From the IMG/VR virus record IMGVR_UViG_2630968639_000010: DNA of 18,265 bases; one strand, given 5' to 3'. The first letter of the stretch is position 1. Each line of letters opens with the position of its first letter. Below, piece after piece: positions 5,305 to 16,337 of the stretch. The DNA is from a virus. Taxonomy: Duplodnaviria; Heunggongvirae; Uroviricota; Caudoviricetes. The position numbers and the translations under genes were made by a program. The notes beneath the pieces are model-generated. The model was given only the letters and a program-made list of their open reading frames with translations. It had not been told where the DNA came from and did not search any database.

Positions 5305-6429
5305 TTACCCCCTGAAGCCTGGCGGGATCGCACTATCCGGTAACGAGACTGTGTTAACCTGTCGGAGTAACGTCTCAGGTCGAACACCTTTCGGCGCGAA
5401 CAAGCCCTGGTATTCATTGGCGATGCTGTGTCGAATCACCTGCTCAGGTGAAAAACCCTGCTGGCGGAATTTTTCCAGCTCCCGTATCGCCCCGTTAGCG
5501 CCCTGCTCCGTTCGAATCGGTTTTCGCAATGCCCGCCTGAACTGGACCCACTCATGCCAGAGTGTTTCCGGCAACCAATCGGGCAGAGCAACTGACAACG
5601 GGTCGAATTTTTTCTGGCGAACCGCCCCACCGATAACCAGAATTCCCTGCTCGGTGTGCCTTGCGATATCACTGCGCCGCAAGACACATATCCCGGTTTC
5701 AACAGCACCGATTTTGAGCAGTGATTTTTGTCGTGGAGAATTTCGGTCAAGTTCGATCCCACACCGGACACCGTTCCTGTCAGTCACGACGATATCAATC
5801 CGCTCTCCGCAGCCGTCTCCACGCTCTGGTACCGGATACTCACGACAGACATCCAGGCCAGCAGCCTGCAACGCCGCCACCGCAGAATTACAAAATTCTG
5901 CTGCAGTACCGCCAGACAATCTCCCCTCAAGCACTCCAGCCACAAAATCCCGAAACTCCCTTCCGGAAGGGAAGGGTTTGGGATGGGTTAGATCAGTATT
6001 TATATCTTCCTCTTCCTCTGGTAACGCTTTTTGATCCGTTTGTGTAACGCTGCCAGCGTTACCTTTTCGTTTCAGTTCGCGTATTTTTGTTACTCGCTCG
6101 TTTGTAACCGCCCGTTTTTTAGAGCTTTTCCCGTTATGGCGCTCAAAGTTAGGAAGCGACAACACACCATTAGTTTCGACCAACCATCCAACCTGAATTA
6201 ACGCATCAGCAAAACCAGCCATAAAAGTGATGCGATCTATTGCGCTTTTTGTAACGCCGCGAGCGTTACACTCCGCGTTACCGTCTATCATTTGTTGATC
6301 CGCCCATACCCAGAAGCGAATGACTTTCCCTAATGCGGCATCTGGATCAATATTCAGAATCTCAGCAAGCCTGAATATTTCCGGCTTATCCGGCGTAATC
6401 ACTTCGAGCTTTATCCAGTTTGAAGCCAT
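5305..6429 (-). CDS. Phage replication initiation protein (O-like, YdaU-like)
   Basis: 374-aa ORF directly upstream of the DnaC-like loader, with AGGTGA ribosome-binding site. The position is that of the initiator in lambdoid replication modules. Confidence 0.7.
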   Translation of the reverse strand: MASNWIKLEVITPDKPEIFRLAEILNIDPDAALGKVIRFWVWADQQMIDGNAECNARGVTKSAIDRITFMAGFADALIQVGWLVETNGVLSLPNFERHNGKSSKKRAVTNERVTKIRELKRKGNAGSVTQTDQKALPEEEEDINTDLTHPKPFPSGREFRDFVAGVLEGRLSGGTAAEFCNSAVAALQAAGLDVCREYPVPERGDGCGERIDIVVTDRNGVRCGIELDRNSPRQKSLLKIGAVETGICVLRRSDIARHTEQGILVIGGAVRQKKFDPLSVALPDWLPETLWHEWVQFRRALRKPIRTEQGANGAIRELEKFRQQGFSPEQVIRHSIANEYQGLFAPKGVRPETLLRQVNTVSLPDSAIPPGFRG

Positions 6430-9735: not shown

Positions 9736-9969
9736 ATGAAAATAGAAACTATCAGCTACATCAAGAAAAACGCAGCCTCACTGGACCTGGCAGAACCCAT
9801 TCTTGTCACGCAGAATGGTGTTCCTGCATACGTAATTGAATCCTATGAGCAGCAACAGGAACGCGAGAACGCTATTGCGTTACTGAAACTTCTCACTATT
9901 TCAGAAAACGACAAGTCTGAAGGTCGCGTGTTTTCAAAAGCACAGTTGCTGGATAGCTTTAACAATTAA
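9736..9969 (+). CDS. Phd/YefM-family antitoxin
   Basis: 77 aa with a Phd/YefM-like N-terminus (LVTQNGVPAYVIESYEQ); immediately upstream of a ParE/RelE-like toxin. Confidence 0.75.
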   Translation: MKIETISYIKKNAASLDLAEPILVTQNGVPAYVIESYEQQQERENAIALLKLLTISENDKSEGRVFSKAQLLDSFNN

Positions 9970-9977
9970 GGTTAACT

Positions 9978-10298
9978 ATGCAGGTTGAATACACACTTAC
10001 TGCCAGAACAAGCCTTGAGCAAATTGCCGACCATCTCCGGAGTAACGACATTGACCCACTCCCTGTAATAGAAGAAATTCTTGAACGATTTGAAACAAGA
10101 GTTACTGCATTCCCGTCCGGATGCCAGTTATGCCCGGAGTTGCTCAAACTTGGCGTGGCGAAATACAGAGAATGCAACACGCCAGAAGGTTACAGAGTGC
10201 TGTACTCTGTAGAAGGGGATGTTATCACTGCACACGCGGTTCTTTCCCAACGCCAGGATATTAAACAGTTACTGTTCAGGCGACTGATCAGAGTTTAG
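9978..10298 (+). CDS. ParE/RelE-family toxin
   Basis: 106 aa; C-terminal YRVLYSVEGDVITAHAVLSQRQD resembles the ParE/RelE fold signature. AGGT ribosome-binding site, 8 nt after the antitoxin stop. Confidence 0.75.
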   Translation: MQVEYTLTARTSLEQIADHLRSNDIDPLPVIEEILERFETRVTAFPSGCQLCPELLKLGVAKYRECNTPEGYRVLYSVEGDVITAHAVLSQRQDIKQLLFRRLIRV

Positions 10299-10614: not shown

Positions 10615-11178
10615 ATGGTTGAGCCAATTTCCTGCGTCATCCCTAAAATTTCCATTCACAACAACCGCCCAGTAACGACTTCTGTCGCTATTGCTAATTT
10701 CTTTGGCAAGCAACACAAGAACGTACTTCAGAAAATCCGCGCTCTCGAATGCTCACCAACTTTCATGACGGCTAACTTTTCAGCCATCGCAATATCCACA
10801 AAGGCTGGCTTTGACGAACGCGAAACAGAAGCCTACCAAATCACCAAAAACGGCTTCGTTTTCCTGGTGATGGGCTTCACTGGCAAAAAAGCCGCTGCAT
10901 TCAAAGAGGCCTACATCGCTGAGTTCGACCGCATGGAAGCAGAGCTACGCCAGAATAATACCACTCCCACAAACAAAATCATTCCGGGCGATGGGCGCAC
11001 TCTGGTTGTTCGCTTCGACAAATTCGGCAACGTCGAATTCACTGAAACCGTTCCTGATGGCGCTCTCGTCTGTACCCTGGACACTTTCCGCCTTTATCTG
11101 GAGAAACAGGGCTGGACTCTTGTAAACCGAAGCGCAATTAAAAATATGACCGTCGAGCAGTTGCTGAGTATTAAATAG
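10615..11178 (+). CDS. Rha-family phage regulatory protein
   Basis: N-terminal VTTSVAIANFFGKQHKNVLQKIRAL resembles the Rha N-domain; GGAGG ribosome-binding site 6 nt upstream. Confidence 0.65.
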   Translation: MVEPISCVIPKISIHNNRPVTTSVAIANFFGKQHKNVLQKIRALECSPTFMTANFSAIAISTKAGFDERETEAYQITKNGFVFLVMGFTGKKAAAFKEAYIAEFDRMEAELRQNNTTPTNKIIPGDGRTLVVRFDKFGNVEFTETVPDGALVCTLDTFRLYLEKQGWTLVNRSAIKNMTVEQLLSIK

Positions 11179-11224
11179 TTTTCTGGAATTTTCTTAATAC
11201 GAGAAATTTATTAAGGAGATAATT

Positions 11225-11446
11225 ATGATTGCTCATCACTTCGGAACTGATGAAATACCACGTCAGTGTGTGACTCCTGGCGATTATGTTCTTCATGAAG
11301 GCCGGACATATATTGCCTCGGCAAATAATATTAAAAAGAGGAAACTTTATATCCGTAGCCTGACCACAAAAACATGCATTACTGACTGCATGATCAAAGT
11401 CTTCCTCGGTCGTGATGGTTTACCTGTAAAGGCGGAGTCATGGTGA
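11225..11446 (+). CDS. kilR: KilR-like cell-division inhibitor
   Basis: 73 aa beginning [14 protein letters not shown], matching KilR of Rac from memory; AAGGAG ribosome-binding site. Confidence 0.8.
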
Positions 11447-11616
11447 AGACTAAGAAAATAAAATGTGCTTACCACCTTTGCAATAAAGAAATTGAAGAAA
11501 GCAAAAGCATTAAAACACCACTTCATTTCATGCGTGGAGTTATCCCAACGACGGAAATGAAAAAATATTGTAGTGAAATATGTGCCGAAAAAGACCAGAT
11601 GGCACACGAACTTTAA
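11440..11616 (+). CDS. ydaE: YdaE-like small zinc-binding protein
   Basis: Not in the ORF track (under 60 aa). My translation: [58 protein letters not shown]. Overlaps the kilR stop by 7 nt. Confidence 0.65.
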
Positions 11617-11689
11617 TTAACTGACTATTCGAAACTGAATTTATGCCAGCAATGGCAGGGATTCGCTCAACCTAATTAAGGAGAAAAAC

Positions 11690-11965
11690 ATGATTACCAA
11701 TTATGAAGCCACTGTTGTAACTACCGATGACATTGTTCACGAGGTTAATCTGGAAGGAAAGCGCATTGGCTACGTGATTAAAACAGAAAATAAAGAAACC
11801 CCATTCACTGTGGTTGATATCGACGGTCCATCAGGCAACGTAAAAACACTTGATGAAGGAGTCACAAAAATGTGCTTGGTTCACATCGGAAAGAATCTGC
11901 CCGCAGAAAAAAAAGCCGGATTTCTGGCAACTCTGATTGCAATGAAATTAAACGGTGAAATCTGA
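11690..11965 (+). CDS. racC: RacC-like protein
   Basis: 91 aa; AAGGAG ribosome-binding site; position between ydaE and recE as in Rac. Confidence 0.7.
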   Translation: MITNYEATVVTTDDIVHEVNLEGKRIGYVIKTENKETPFTVVDIDGPSGNVKTLDEGVTKMCLVHIGKNLPAEKKAGFLATLIAMKLNGEI

Positions 11966-12066
11966 AAGAAATAGCCTGCGTATGGCGCAGGCTATGAACA
12001 GTGTGTATCCGGCAAGATCATTCACTGAACAAAACGAATTTTAATCTGAGTTGAGGTTAAAAAACA

Positions 12067-15000
12067 ATGAGCACAAAACCACTCTTCCTGTTACGGAAAG
12101 CGAAAAAATCATCCGGTGAACCTGACGTCGTCCTGTGGGCAAGCGACGATTTTGAATCGACCAGTGCCACTCTGGATTACCTGCTCGTTAAGTCAGGTAA
12201 AAAACTGAGCAGCTATTTTAAACCTGTTGCCACGAATTTTCCTGTCGTTAATGACCTTCCCCCTGAAGGTGAGATCGATTTTACCTGGAGTGAACGCTAT
12301 CAACTCAGCAAAGACTCCATGACCTGGGAACTAAAACCGGGAGCAGCGCCAGACGACGTTCACCATCAGGATATTGCACCGGAAATTGAAGAACCGGCGG
12401 GAGGCCAGGAAGAAAACACACAGGCAGACGCTCACGGGGATTGCCAGGATTGCGAAGTCTCTGTATCTACTTTGCGGTTCACACAGCGTCTTCTGCACAT
12501 TTTTACCTATGCGGCCGGGGATCGGAAATACCTGCATCATGCCACCCGAGAACAACGCGAACACATTACTGCTCTTGAGATGGATCAGGAAAACAGCTAT
12601 GTCCAGAATCTGCTGTTGGCCATACGCGGCATGGCAGAACCGACAACTCTGGATAATGCCGCCCTGCTCCGCCTGACTGATGCAATTAAGGCAGTTTTCT
12701 CTATCACGAAAAAACATCAGCCCTATGAATTTAAGAATTTCATTTCAGCCTGGCTGGATACCGAACACATTGATCGCGGTCTTCTGACAAAAGAATGGCA
12801 AAAAGGGAATCGTGTTTCACGCATCACTCGCACGGCTTCCGGTGCTAATGCTGGCGGCGGGAACCTCACCGATCGCGGCGAAGGTTTCGTCCACGATCTG
12901 ACGTCGCTGGCGCGCGATGTAGCCACTGGCGTACTGGCCCGTTCAATGGACGTGGACATCTATAACCTTCATCCGGCACACGCGAAACGCATTGAGGAAA
13001 TTATCGCTCAAAATAAACCGCCCTTTTCTGTTTTCCGCGACAAATTCATCACCATGCCTGGCGGGCTGGATTATTCACGCGCCATCGTGGTTGCGTCCGT
13101 GAAAGAAGCACCAATTGGTATCGAGGTCATCCCCGCGCACGTCACTGAATATCTGAACAAAGTACTGACTGAAACCGATCATGCCAACCCTGATCCGGAA
13201 ATCGTGGATATTGCCTGCGGTCGCTCCTCTGCCCCGATGCCGCAGCGTGTAACAGAAGAAGGAAAACAGGATGATGAAGAAAAACTACAACCATCTGGAA
13301 CAATGGCAGATGAACAGGCAACGGCTGAAACCATAGAACCGGACGCAACTGAACATCATCAGGACACGCAGCCGCTGGATGCTCAGTCACAGGTAAACCC
13401 TGTTGATGCGGAATACCAGAAAAAGCGGGCAGAACTCCATGAAGCCAGGAAAAACATTCCGCCCAAAAATCCTGTCGATGCAGACAAATTGCTGGCGGCC
13501 TCGCGTGGTGAGTTCGTTGAAGGGATTAGCGACCCGAACGATCCGAAATGGGTTAAGGGGATCCAGACTCGCGATTCTGTGTACCAGAACCAGCCAGAAA
13601 CGGAACAAAACACGCCAGAAACTGAAAAAACTAGCCCGGATGTGAAACAACCTGAGCCAGTAGTGCAACATGAACCGGAAAAAGTCTGCAATGCCTGCGG
13701 TCAGACTGGCGGGGATAGCTGCCCTGACTGTGCTGTGGTAATAGGCGACGCCACGTATCAGGAAACCTTTAATGAAGAAAATCTGGATGAATCTCAGGAA
13801 AAAGATCCGGAGGAAATGGAAGGCGCTGAACATCTGCACAAGGAGAACGCTGGCAGCGATCCGCATCACAATTGCAGTGATGAAACTGGTGAAGCGTCAG
13901 CTCCTGTAGCAATTGAAATCATGTGGCCATCATATTTCGAACCAGGCCGCTATGAAAACCTCCCGAACGAGGTTTATCACTCTGCCAATGGAATAAGCAG
14001 CACAATGCTGAAGGATGCTCGTATCAGCCTGATGTATTACCACGGACGGCACATTGCCGGAACTATTCCGAGTGAGGAAAGTGATGCATTGCTGCGTGGG
14101 CGGATCATTCACAGCTATGTTCTGGAAACGGATAAATTCGCTGATGAATATGCTATTCCGGTACCGGTTCCTGAACATGTGGTTACCACTTCTCACGAAC
14201 TGATCGCCATTATCAAAAAACACAATGCCAGTCTGCCAGCACTGATGACACCAGAGCAGATGAAAGAGTGGATCGAAAGCTACAACAGCACTCTTATCCA
14301 GCCACTGTCGGTAAGTGCTGGAGCCGAAGAAACAGGCATCCTTTACGGTTCGCTTCCGGTGGAATTCCAGCGTATTCCGGAGGAGGAGAAACATACTGCA
14401 TCGGCAATGAAAGCCTGCATTAGAGAATACAATGCAAGCCTCCCTCCTCTATTGAAAACCAGTGGAACACGGGAGCAACTTCTGGAGCAAATTGAAACTA
14501 TAGATCCAGAACTGGCGAAAAAAGAACGTGCTAAATCTTTGCCTTACAACATCAGTGGCACGAAAGAGCAATTAACCGAAATCGCCCGGAAAATTCGCCC
14601 GGAACTGGTTACCCTGGAGGACTGGCAAAAACGCCAGCAAGAAGAAAACGCCGGGAAAACGTTTATCAGTTCAGATATGTATGAACAGGCAAAAAATATT
14701 CACGCTGCACTGCAAAACAATACTGATGCAGCAAGGCTACTCAACCACCCGGATCGCAAATCTGAAATCAGCTATTTCGGGTTTGATGAAGAAACCGGGC
14801 TGGAAATCAGGGTCCGTCCTGATATCGAAATCCGACTGCCATACGAAAGCATTTGCGCCGACGTGAAGTCAGTCAGCCTCGGTTATGTGCGACAGGAACG
14901 ACTGAAAGATCGCCTGCACCGTGAAATTATTGAGCGTGATTATCACCTCAGCGCAGCAATGTATTGCGATGTGGCAAACCTGGACAAATTTTTCTGGATC

Positions 15001-15210
15001 TTCGTCAACAAAGATGCTGGCTATCACTGGGTGGCAGTCGTGGAAGCCTCGCAGGAACTCCTGGAACTTGGTCGACAGGAATATCGCCGGACGCTACGAC
15101 AGATAAACGAAGCCCTGGAGACAAACAACTGGCCAGCACCGATTACCGAAAGTTATACCGACGAATTAAACGACTTTGATCTTCGTCGTCTTGAAGCACT
15201 GAGCATCTGA
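12067..15210 (+). CDS. recE: RecE-like exonuclease VIII (PD-(D/E)xK 5'-3' dsDNA exonuclease) with an extra internal segment
   Basis: N-terminus [26 protein letters not shown] and a C-terminal core (RVRPDIEIR ... CADVKSV ... YHLSAAMY ... NNWPAP) match RecE from memory. 1047 aa, longer than the K-12 protein as I remember it. Confidence 0.8.
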
Positions 15211-15221
15211 GGAAGGACACA

Positions 15222-16274
15222 ATGAACGAATTAACTCAACAAGAAAATATTAACTCTAACGTTGCGGTTTTCAGCCCTCAGTCCCTGGCTGCAATTCAGA
15301 CATTTTCTCAGGTAATGGCTTCCGGCATGGCTACAGTACCGGAACACCTCCGGGGAAACCCATCAGACTGTATGGCCATCACCATGCAGGCGATGCAGTG
15401 GCAAATGAACCCTTACGCAGTAGCTCAGAAAACTTTCGTTGTGAATGGTGTGCTAGGGTATGAAGCGCAACTGGTTAACGCCGTAATCAGCACCCGTGGG
15501 CCGCTAACTGGGCGTATTGAATATGACTGGTTCGGACCGTGGGAAAAAATCATCGGAAAGTTTGAAATCAGGAAGAACGACAAAGGAAAGGAATATCGCG
15601 TCCCGGGATGGAAACTGGCTGATGAAAACGGGATCGGTGTTCGTGTCCAGGCAACACTACGCGGCGAAAGTAAACCGCGCGTACTGGAATTACTTCTGGC
15701 GCAGGCCAGAACACGTAACTCAACGCTATGGGCCGACGATCCTCGCCAGCAGCTTGCCTATCTGGCGCTGAAACGCTGGGCGCGCCTTTATTGCCCCGAA
15801 GTGATTCTTGGAGTGTACACCAGGGACGAACTGGACGAGCCACAGGAAAAAATCATTAACCCGGTTCAGGAACATAAAAACACATCCGCTTGCCGCGCGG
15901 AACGTGAAACAACAATTATTGAGCAGGATGCCGGGGAAAACTGGATCGATGCTTTCCGTGAACGTATTGAGCAGGCACAAAGCACCGGGGAAACAACAGC
16001 ACTTCGCCAGGAAGTGGAAGAGCATAAAAATACACTTGGCGCTCTCTATACGGAACTTAAAGGAAAAGTGGTTCAGCGTCATCACCGTCTCAATGCTATT
16101 GCCCGTATTGAGAAGATGATAAATGACCTTCCTTCTTCAGGTGATCCAGAAGCAGAACAAAAATTTACTGCTCTGGAAAATACGCTGAATGCTGCTCGGC
16201 CACATCTGGGTGAATTATATGAGGCGTATAAAACGACACTGACAGATATGAAACCAGAATATATCGGCTCCTGA
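15222..16274 (+). CDS. Putative single-strand annealing protein partnering the exonuclease (RecT/Red-beta-like position)
   Basis: Directly downstream of recE with GAGGAAGG ribosome-binding site. The sequence does not match K-12 RecT as I recall it, so family assignment is open. Confidence 0.55.
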   Translation: MNELTQQENINSNVAVFSPQSLAAIQTFSQVMASGMATVPEHLRGNPSDCMAITMQAMQWQMNPYAVAQKTFVVNGVLGYEAQLVNAVISTRGPLTGRIEYDWFGPWEKIIGKFEIRKNDKGKEYRVPGWKLADENGIGVRVQATLRGESKPRVLELLLAQARTRNSTLWADDPRQQLAYLALKRWARLYCPEVILGVYTRDELDEPQEKIINPVQEHKNTSACRAERETTIIEQDAGENWIDAFRERIEQAQSTGETTALRQEVEEHKNTLGALYTELKGKVVQRHHRLNAIARIEKMINDLPSSGDPEAEQKFTALENTLNAARPHLGELYEAYKTTLTDMKPEYIGS

Positions 16275-16337
16275 TATTTACTTTGGCGGTGTAGTCCCAC
16301 CGCCATCAAAAAAATTTATTTTATGAGAGAAAAGACA

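Follow-up and report, generated by a model that had tools for sequence, protein, structure and literature searches.

The recE locus and its exchanged cassette

The window, i.e., the whole analysed stretch of 18,265 nucleotides of caudoviricete DNA, carries a recE gene followed by a gene for a RecT-family annealase (Table 1). The former occupies the same gene position as its counterpart in the Rac prophage of E. coli K-12, namely in a Rac-like prophage at ttcA, and a 100% identical recE is found in E. coli STEC308. Its product exceeds the cut-off (1269) of the NCBIfam exodeoxyribonuclease VIII equivalog NF007259 with 1331.5 bits, with Pfam Exonuc_VIII (PF06630) matching residues 2-182 (216.8 bits) and DUF3799 (PF12684) matching the C-terminus (55.2 bits, cut-off 26).

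Table 1. Features of the recE/recT region, with positions in the window and the basis of each assignment.
Feature	Position	Strand	Details and basis
recE gene	12067..15210	+	1047 aa; ORF list; Pfam PF06630, PF12684; NCBIfam NF007259
N-terminal region common to K-12 RecE	12067..13908	+	divergent at 12369-12771; blastn, protein alignment
PD-(D/E)XK nuclease domain, RecE/DUF3799 family	13900..15210	+	aa 612-1047; DUF3799 55.2 bits, AF2, Foldseek
Swapped cassette: nuclease domain and RecT-family annealase	13909..16283	+	blastn gap; 29% nuclease identity; RecT not alignable to K-12
Insert	14152..14652	+	aa 696-862, 167 residues; anchor mapping, family length, AF2
Helix A1 ('HN' C-cap), putative first helix of outer SAP-like unit	14173..14244	+	AF2 helix 11-24; invariant N22; single-SAP helix 1 aligns, Prob 83%
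Nested unit 1, helix A2 ('YN' cap) and degenerate B0, acidic	14245..14382	+	helices 31-44, 55-63; invariant N42
Nested unit 2, A3 ('YN' cap) and B1 ('[11 protein letters not shown]')	14383..14538	+	helices 80-93, 104-123; invariant N91
Helix B2 ('[19 protein letters not shown]'), putative second helix of outer SAP-like unit	14539..14622	+	AF2 helix 135-145
RecT-family annealase, 350 aa	15222..16274	+	Pfam RecT 148 bits; PHROG 561; long helical C-terminal tail
RecT tail segment, aa 232-314	15915..16163	+	accompanies nuclease type on different RecT core (Serratia L038)

The C-terminal nuclease domain was modelled by AF2 with a pLDDT of 92.5, and Foldseek searches with this model returned K-12 RecE (3H4R) as the top match (E 4.7e-10), the PD-(D/E)XK fold and the catalytic residues being common to both proteins. 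At the sequence level, similarity to PDB 3H4R is weak (phmmer E 3.2e-6, ~29% identity), and it is within this modest similarity that both flanks of the insert align to K-12 RecE, as had been claimed in a first-pass annotation of the window. Four of the catalytic residues, H682 (the counterpart of H652 in K-12), E900, D919, and D932, do not vary in either family alignment, and the fifth, K934, is invariant in one and retained by 90% or more of the sequences in the other; judged by these residues, the active site is intact. From K-12 RecE (PMC11611040), we infer that the domain would act as a toroidal tetramer with processive 5'->3' dsDNA exonuclease activity. An antisense ORF (13930..14394) overlaps the nuclease-domain region and is regarded as a chance ORF because the plus-strand frame is conserved across the family.

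Comparison with K-12 Rac by blastn aligned positions 11215-12368 at 94% and 12772-13908 at 90% identity, and the N-terminal ~600 residues of the protein are highly similar to those of K-12 RecE (64% identity over a 775-column BLAST alignment). Between 13908 and 16284, no DNA similarity of the window to K-12 Rac was detected by blastn, while both sides of this gap show 90-95% identity. The encoded RecT likewise could not be aligned to K-12 RecT in sequence comparisons, i.e., the two annealases are unrelated at the sequence level. The segment 13909-16283 is a cassette swap to a nuclease/RecT pair of the type known from the Salmonella prophage Gifsy-1, and the RecE of the window joins a K-12-like N-terminal region to a C-terminal nuclease domain of the Gifsy-1 type. 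The window owes the insert described below to this exchange in its Rac-like prophage. A long-tailed RecT is co-inherited with this nuclease type and lies downstream of it at almost every locus inspected, and even at a Serratia locus with a K-12-like RecT core the tail is of the window type (40% identity, E 4e-13).

A probable ancient structured domain in one surface loop

The anchors 'DKFADEY' and 'GKTFISS' enclose 167 residues in the window protein, whereas the corresponding K-12 anchors 'EEFSNRF' and 'GKTVITA' enclose 27 (aa 666-692), which places the site within the disordered 665-698 loop of K-12 RecE. The resulting surplus of 140 residues agrees well with the ~145 estimated in the first-pass annotation, which had also located the segment correctly (14140-14665), and direct alignment ruled out that K-12 RecE has the same segment. 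The term 'insertion' fits in part: the segment is indeed extra with respect to K-12, but it was not inserted into a K-12-type domain, as the whole domain belongs to the ~29%-identical Gifsy-1-type lineage. A recent insertion was rejected, since the segment is long-standing in that lineage and conserved in length there. An intein or mobile insertion was rejected as well: the reading frame runs through the segment, no domain of these kinds was matched, and the segment is conserved as a component of the fold, with a beta-bridge linking its two ends. No break in GC content marks the insert. We regard the insert as an ancient structured domain that grew within a single surface loop of a PD-(D/E)XK nuclease domain of the RecE family.

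Structure prediction, which had been suggested as a check for a separate domain, modelled the insert alone as a confident helical module (pLDDT 92.0, 8 helices), and its helices are identical in the nuclease-domain and insert-alone models. Both models also contain a beta-bridge between insert residues 7-8 and 150-151, by which the two ends are brought together. Despite the high pLDDT, the pTM of the models is 0.69-0.73. Among the BFVD viral models, Foldseek found nothing that matched the insert significantly.

Internal repeats are evident in the protein. Smith-Waterman alignment between parts of the insert reached a score of 69 as compared to 27.8 +/- 3.9 for 200 shuffles (0 of 200 reached 69), and comparison of the family profile with itself yielded a pair of matches off the diagonal, one with a Prob of 96.4% (E 1.3e-9) and one with a Prob of 95.9% (E 6.4e-9), the latter of which aligns nested unit 1 to nested unit 2. 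The first-pass annotation had seen the repeats 'most clearly in DNA', which was not borne out: Tandem Repeats Finder detected nothing in the insert DNA, an exact-repeat search found only 12-15 nt matches of chance size, and the best DNA self-alignment (55 nt, A1 versus A3 region) scored 15 as compared to 10.7 +/- 1.3 for codon shuffles, a value reached by 1 of 100. With a marginal repeat in the DNA and a significant one in the protein, the duplication is thus an old one that shows chiefly in the protein, and a recent tandem duplication was dropped as an explanation. The proposed relatedness of the units could be upheld, though not as simple head-to-tail tandem copies, as the helix types follow one another in the order A A B A B B.

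The sequence of helix types is consistent with an outer SAP that has two units nested between its helices. Profile comparison suggests that the two helices of an ancestral single SAP correspond to A1 and B2 at the insert ends, with A2-B0 and A3-B1 nested between them. In this comparison, helix 2 and the tail of single-SAP relatives align at B2 (Prob 96.9%, E 1.7e-10); in the window protein, ~105 residues of nested units separate the two helices of the outer unit. The most SAP-like of the units is nested unit 2, where a sub-threshold SAP_new25 match falls on insert residues 98-113.

Relationship to SAP domains and distribution

A resemblance of the units to SAP- or HeH-like modules had been noted at first reading. 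Pfam searches with the insert gave sub-threshold matches only (SAP_new25 with 13.1 bits, Ish1 with 14.8 bits), and the units are therefore called SAP-like rather than members of the SAP domain family by the Pfam criterion. Among 27 orthologous inserts, Pfam SAP (PF02037) was the commonest match and was found at E <= 1 in 16 (best E 1.2e-5), and two same-site relatives exceed its cut-off of 23.9 bits, namely P0231 (33.4 bits) and P0250 (27.5 bits). In hhalign comparisons, inserts with a single SAP matched the window-type family at both B2 (Prob 96.9%) and A1 (83%). Further SAP hallmarks are retained in alignment and AF2 model, i.e., two helices with an extended loop between them and, where helix 2 begins, a conserved Gly and a basic residue followed by a Leu pattern (motifs 'SGTREQLL' and 'SGTKEQLT'), and conservation is pronounced across the insert family: N22, N42, and N91 are invariant, and G102, R104, L107, and G133 are present in at least 90% of members. 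We take the ancestral state to be one SAP domain in the nuclease loop, as still seen in relatives. The reading of the window's insert as an array of three SAP-like two-helix units (helix-extended loop-helix), with putative nucleic-acid binding, is weighed below together with its function.

Of 5426 complete E. coli genomes, 190 carry the window-type nuclease domain, which also occurs in ~60 other Enterobacterales species and in active phages. Throughout, the insert measures 163-170 residues (166-168 in 24 of 27), and this length is kept from 97% down to ~20% (19-25%) identity; the insert also occurs in stand-alone nucleases of ~430 aa that are devoid of the RecE N-terminal region. Across the wider family the loop ranges from ~20 to 229 residues and falls into discrete classes near 30, 62-70, 76, 125, 174, and 225 residues. 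The one representative checked in each class has as many A as B helices, with motif counts of 2/2, 3/3, and 4/4, and 1/1 as read from the sequences. In another lineage, the same nuclease loop carries unrelated 'GKPENQxLKPSDK' repeats.

Several known exonucleases belong to the same nuclease lineage and include the whole insert, namely those of Gifsy-1 and the phages SPN3UB and HK225 (each 52% identical to the window type), Rac-SA53 (96.8%), and Klebsiella ST16-OXA48phi5.1, with coverage of 98-100%; they differ only by sequence divergence and by their N-terminal regions. None of these five is annotated with the insert, and no published description of it was found. Single-SAP DUF3799/RecE nucleases (e.g., P0231, P0227, and P0269) share the insertion point, the flanking motifs, and a SAP recognised by Pfam (in P0231), but contain a single unit in a loop of 62-70 residues as compared to three in the window protein. 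K-12 RecE, in contrast, has a disordered loop of 34 residues in place of the ordered 167-residue array.

Possible roles of the array

[quoted passage not shown] With K-12 RecE as the guide to where the array sits relative to the channel, its most likely role would be the capture or guidance of a duplex DNA end, and to this role, taken jointly with the reading as three SAP-like units, we assign roughly an even chance. Four array copies might then form an ordered crown round the channel mouth, in which the DNA backbone would meet the basic N-termini of B1 and B2 as well as a basic face on A3, so that the duplex end could be held or guided while the 5' strand feeds to the active site. Mechanistic analogies may be seen in FAN1 (SAP combined with the PD-(D/E)XK-type VRR_nuc) and in the C-terminal SAP of Ku70, which contact duplex DNA beside the processing site. 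These proteins are unrelated, however, and their SAP is a single separate domain instead of an array nested within the nuclease fold, the comparison implying homology for the SAP motif only.

While the ring position favours DNA handling, the charge of the insert calls for caution. In every family member examined it is net acidic (net -1 to -12, pI 4.6-6.2), unlike typical DNA-binding SAP domains. The acidity is conserved in the first half (net -6 in the window copy, ~-7 on family average), which would point away from the DNA or take part in a different contact, and the second half is near neutral with the conserved basic residues concentrated there. The sub-threshold SAP score of the window sequence (13.1 bits) likewise speaks against the joint reading, as does the fact that SAP-type modules mediate protein contacts in some proteins, SLX4-MUS81 and LEM-BAF being examples.

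Another scenario, for which the chances appear fairly small, is that the array is a docking platform for the helical tail of the co-inherited RecT or for a host factor, thereby coupling resection to annealase loading. A model is provided by the C-terminal domain of Redβ, which binds λ exonuclease. The acidity of the insert would suit a basic partner better than DNA, SAP/LEM-type modules are able to make protein contacts, the nuclease domain and RecT were exchanged as a single cassette, and retention of the RecT tail (aa 232-314) with the nuclease type even on another RecT core makes this tail a good candidate for a nuclease-specific contact. However, nucleases with 1, 2, 3, or 4 units all have this long-tailed RecT behind them, so that the number of units does not track the tail, and co-variation of tail and array was discarded as unsupported. 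Moreover, the partners downstream of insert-bearing nucleases comprise not only long-tailed RecT and a K-12-like RecT core but, behind distant SAP-insert nucleases, also an AAA_24/Sak4-like protein or an unclassified protein instead of RecT, which, together with the stand-alone nucleases, fits a function intrinsic to the nuclease. The λ annealase has furthermore been placed at the face where the 3' strand exits, and the K-12 loop at the entry rim (PMC11611040).

Duplex-end capture also has to be weighed against a mainly architectural or regulatory array, e.g., a rigid collar that lengthens or narrows the channel, an oligomer stabiliser, or an acidic gate or DNA mimic directed against non-end DNA. 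This is conceivable in view of the very strict length, the high pLDDT values, the conserved acidity of the first half, and the equal A/B helix counts (one representative per size class), which suggest a structurally obligate pairing. We nonetheless consider it unlikely, as the pTM values suggest that sub-modules shift against each other, unlike in a rigid collar, and as the G-x-(K/R) motifs typical of SAP helices in contact with nucleic acids are conserved. That the segment is a tolerated, functionless expansion by slippage of a permissive loop, which is a hot spot given its range of lengths and the unrelated repeats in another lineage, is very improbable in view of the conservation of length and many residues over ~60 species down to ~20% identity, the lack of a DNA-level repeat pointing to recent slippage, and the confidently predicted fold.

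A more speculative extension of duplex-end capture, in which we place little confidence, regards the loop as an evolvable 'reach' element: hairpins added as balanced helix pairs (1 to 4 units) would set the distance ahead of the ring at which the duplex is gripped, with the basic half holding DNA and the acidic half serving as a DNA-mimicking gate or as a dock that passes the 3' strand to the annealase. Whatever its role, the array-bearing RecE is a real and widespread, apparently undescribed variant of a known enzyme rather than a new kind of system. RecE and RecT are a workhorse of recombineering, and the array is a candidate determinant of differences in efficiency or substrate preference between RecET systems. 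As it is ordered where K-12 RecE is disordered, the variant offers a better structural target and could allow the complex of the nuclease with DNA to be visualised, and the natural series of 0 to 4 units is usable for testing the function of the loop. The locus also shows that nuclease domain and annealase travel as a single exchangeable cassette, with the break exactly at the domain boundary.

Exchange of the nuclease domain together with recT

The window represents a Rac-like prophage at the E. coli ttcA site. Its recE ORF matches recE of strain STEC308 at 100% identity; there, the gene neighbours are kilR, ydaE, recE, a RecT-family gene, ralR, xisR, intR, and ttcA. In Pfam, the N-terminal part of the encoded RecE (1047 aa) matches Exonuc_VIII and its C-terminal part DUF3799, a PD-(D/E)XK domain of the RecE type; the protein also matches the exodeoxyribonuclease VIII equivalog of NCBIfam. 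In routine annotation, a gene of this type is called recE or exodeoxyribonuclease VIII. When the protein is aligned directly with K-12 RecE (sequence from NC_000913), the first ~600 residues are highly similar except for a divergent stretch near residues 100–230, whereas the C-terminal nuclease domain shares only ~29% identity (phmmer against PDB 3H4R: E 3.2e-6).

In blastn comparisons with K-12 Rac, identities of 90–95% flank a segment of zero similarity that comprises exactly the nuclease domain and recT. On the left, the break lies where the nuclease domain starts (aa ~614, corresponding to ~590 in K-12), and RecT of the window is not alignable with K-12 RecT. Relative to K-12 Rac, nuclease domain and recT are one exchange cassette. 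The extra segment in the nuclease domain, which the first-pass annotation had read as an insertion, is a lineage feature imported by this swap and not a local event. Among 5426 complete E. coli genomes, 190 encode this nuclease domain with its insert, as do ~60 other Enterobacterales species. The domain shares 52% identity with Salmonella Gifsy-1 RecE and is also encoded by the phages Rac-SA53 (96.8%), SPN3UB, HK225, and Klebsiella ST16-OXA48phi5.1.

A second block without DNA similarity to K-12 sits within the otherwise K-12-like RecE N-terminal region. The early region of the prophage carries a Phd/YefM-RelE/ParE toxin–antitoxin pair, adjoined by a truncated Rha-family regulator; the pair is annotated in STEC308 and absent from the list of K-12 Rac genes in the compared annotation. 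An unbroken 374-aa ORF, the STEC308 counterpart of which consists of two partial pseudogene pieces (RefSeq), is K-12-like in DNA only at its 3' end (5305–5562), matching the ydaU 3' end.

Coordinates of features in the window and at related loci (L numbers)
Feature	Position	Remark
374-aa ORF	5305-6429	- strand
Its STEC308 counterpart	L002 6240-6554, 6924-7364	pseudogene pieces
Toxin–antitoxin pair	9736-10298	STEC308: L002 10670-11232
Rha-family regulator	~10642-11178	truncated
recE ORF	12067-15210
Second divergent block	12369-12771	RecE aa ~101-235
Exchange cassette	13909-16283	breaks 13908/13909 and 16283/16284
Insert between anchors	14152-14652	RecE aa 696-862
RecT-family annealase gene	15222-16274	next gene after recE
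RecT C-terminal tail	15915-16163	RecT aa 232-314
Serratia RecT with portable tail	L038 5251-6411; L041 5254-6414
Four-unit version, Silvania confinis	L066 4001-5431
AAA_24 (Sak4-like) protein	L084 4341-5372	downstream of P0250

Architecture of the insert

The anchors DKFADEY and GKTFISS enclose 167 residues in the window RecE, as compared to 27 in K-12 (aa 666–692). This surplus of 140 residues upholds the size (~145 residues) and placement (14140–14665) proposed in the first-pass annotation, and the motifs it listed are present when the protein is aligned with K-12 RecE. The insert keeps a length of 163–170 residues from 97% down to ~20% identity; three Asn (positions 22, 42, and 91 of the insert) are invariant, and G102, R104, L107, and G133 each occur in at least 90% of sequences. 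AlphaFold2 gave a pLDDT of 92.5 for the whole nuclease domain and 92.0 for the insert alone, with a RecE-like core (Foldseek top match 3H4R, E 4.7e-10). Both models agree in eight insert helices and in a small beta-bridge joining the insert's two ends, a predicted feature that fits a domain grown in a loop. Two types of helix alternate, in the order A1 A2 B0 A3 B1 B2: type A ends in a conserved (Y/H)N (IIKKHN, WIESYN, CIREYN) and type B starts with S-G-x-(K/R), a pattern shared by the weaker B-like helix B0.

The internal repeat claimed earlier is real at the protein level, but almost nothing of it is left in the DNA. The best local self-alignment of the insert scored 69 (27.8 ± 3.9 in 200 shuffles), and self-comparison of a profile built from 27 orthologous inserts yielded two off-diagonal alignments (insert residues 3–74 with 72–154, Prob 96.4%, E 1.3e-9; 78–118 with 29–69, Prob 95.9%, E 6.4e-9). 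At the DNA level, Tandem Repeats Finder reported no array, a repeat search found nothing beyond matches of 12–15 nt, and the best self-alignment score was equalled in 1 of 100 codon shuffles; the duplication is therefore old.

Loop size classes and relationship to SAP

When 1.84 billion cluster representatives were searched and the loop was then mapped between the two anchors, discrete loop sizes emerged among 102 representatives of the nuclease family: 20–40 residues as in K-12 (29), 61–70 (16), 75–78 (8), 123–126 (2), 171–184 (29, the class of the window protein), and 225–229 (3), the remaining 15 falling into other bins. In part of the 61–70-residue class, the loop has a classical SAP motif such as MKAALKEAGLKVTGKKEDLVARLKQA, and Pfam SAP scores reach 33.4 bits in the family protein P0231 and 27.5 bits in P0250 (cut-off 23.9). 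SAP is also the commonest Pfam match of the 27 orthologous 167-residue inserts (16 at E ≤ 1, best 1.2e-5), ahead of SAP_new25, Ish1, and Thymopoietin, all three belonging, like SAP, to the helix-extended loop-helix class. The window's own copy lies below the Pfam threshold.

When a profile of seven single-SAP proteins from the 61–70-residue class was aligned with the insert, its second helix fell on B2 (Prob 96.9%, E 1.7e-10) and the first helix on A1 (Prob 83%), which suggests that the two helices of an ancestral SAP now lie at the insert ends and enclose A2-B0 and A3-B1 as nested units. In one representative per size class, A and B helices are equal in number (1/1, 2/2, 3/3, 4/4) and arranged as in a balanced set of brackets, consistent with obligate pairing of the helices. 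Four-unit versions (225–229 residues) are P0129, P0158, P0161, and the Silvania confinis protein; by motif count, P0129 has one A and one B helix added at separate places, so that the counts stay equal. In another lineage of the family (P0176, P0177, P0178, P0184, P0185, and P0187), the same loop holds 2 to 6 copies of the unrelated repeat GKPENQxLKPSDKxIxxVExW. The nuclease-domain loop is a general hot spot for repeat growth.

Position on the nuclease and possible roles

Since the replaced K-12 residues 666–692 fall inside loop 665–698 (direct numbering), the SAP-like array takes the place of the presumed DNA-capture loop of K-12 RecE. [quoted passage not shown] If a tetramer forms here too, four arrays would surround the DNA-entry mouth, and we infer that capture or guidance of a duplex end is the most likely role of the array. 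Conserved basic residues lie in the second half of the insert (K77, K84, R88, K99, R104, R123, K125, K135, and R143), where the mean charge is ~0 as compared to −6.8 in the first half. The main caution against DNA-end capture is the acidic net charge of the insert in every family member examined (−1 to −12).

A plausible alternative is a docking site for a partner, as nuclease domain and RecT travel together and, in Serratia, the RecT tail accompanies nucleases of this type even where the RecT core is K-12-like. However, nucleases with one, two, three, or four units are all followed by the same tail, distant stand-alone SAP-insert nucleases precede an AAA_24/Sak4-like or unclassified protein and not RecT, and ~430-aa forms entirely lack the RecE N-terminal region. 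Because of this mismatch between tail and units, the non-RecT partners, and the ~430-aa forms, a function intrinsic to the nuclease is favoured. An architectural or gating role is conceivable, while the conservation of the insert makes neutral expansion improbable.

The helical C-terminal tail of the window RecT ('LYTELKGKVVQRHHRLNAIA') is a portable module; at two Serratia loci, it is joined to a K-12-like RecT core and again follows a nuclease of this type. The tail may provide a nuclease-specific contact, in analogy to the way in which Redβ engages λ exonuclease through its C-terminal domain. P0250 is a distantly related, stand-alone nuclease that carries a SAP insert; at its locus, the AAA_24 gene in place of recT adjoins a DEAD/ResIII helicase gene.

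In the literature searched, no paper mentions all three of RecE, RecT, and a SAP domain, and a looser search including HeH/LEM domains returned nuclear-envelope papers only, none on RecE or RecT; likewise, excerpts of a PD-(D/E)XK survey and of a 2023 review (PMC11611040) mention no such RecE insert. The main value of the insert is that of an ordered stand-in for the disordered loop of K-12 RecE, together with a natural series of zero to four units usable in experiments.
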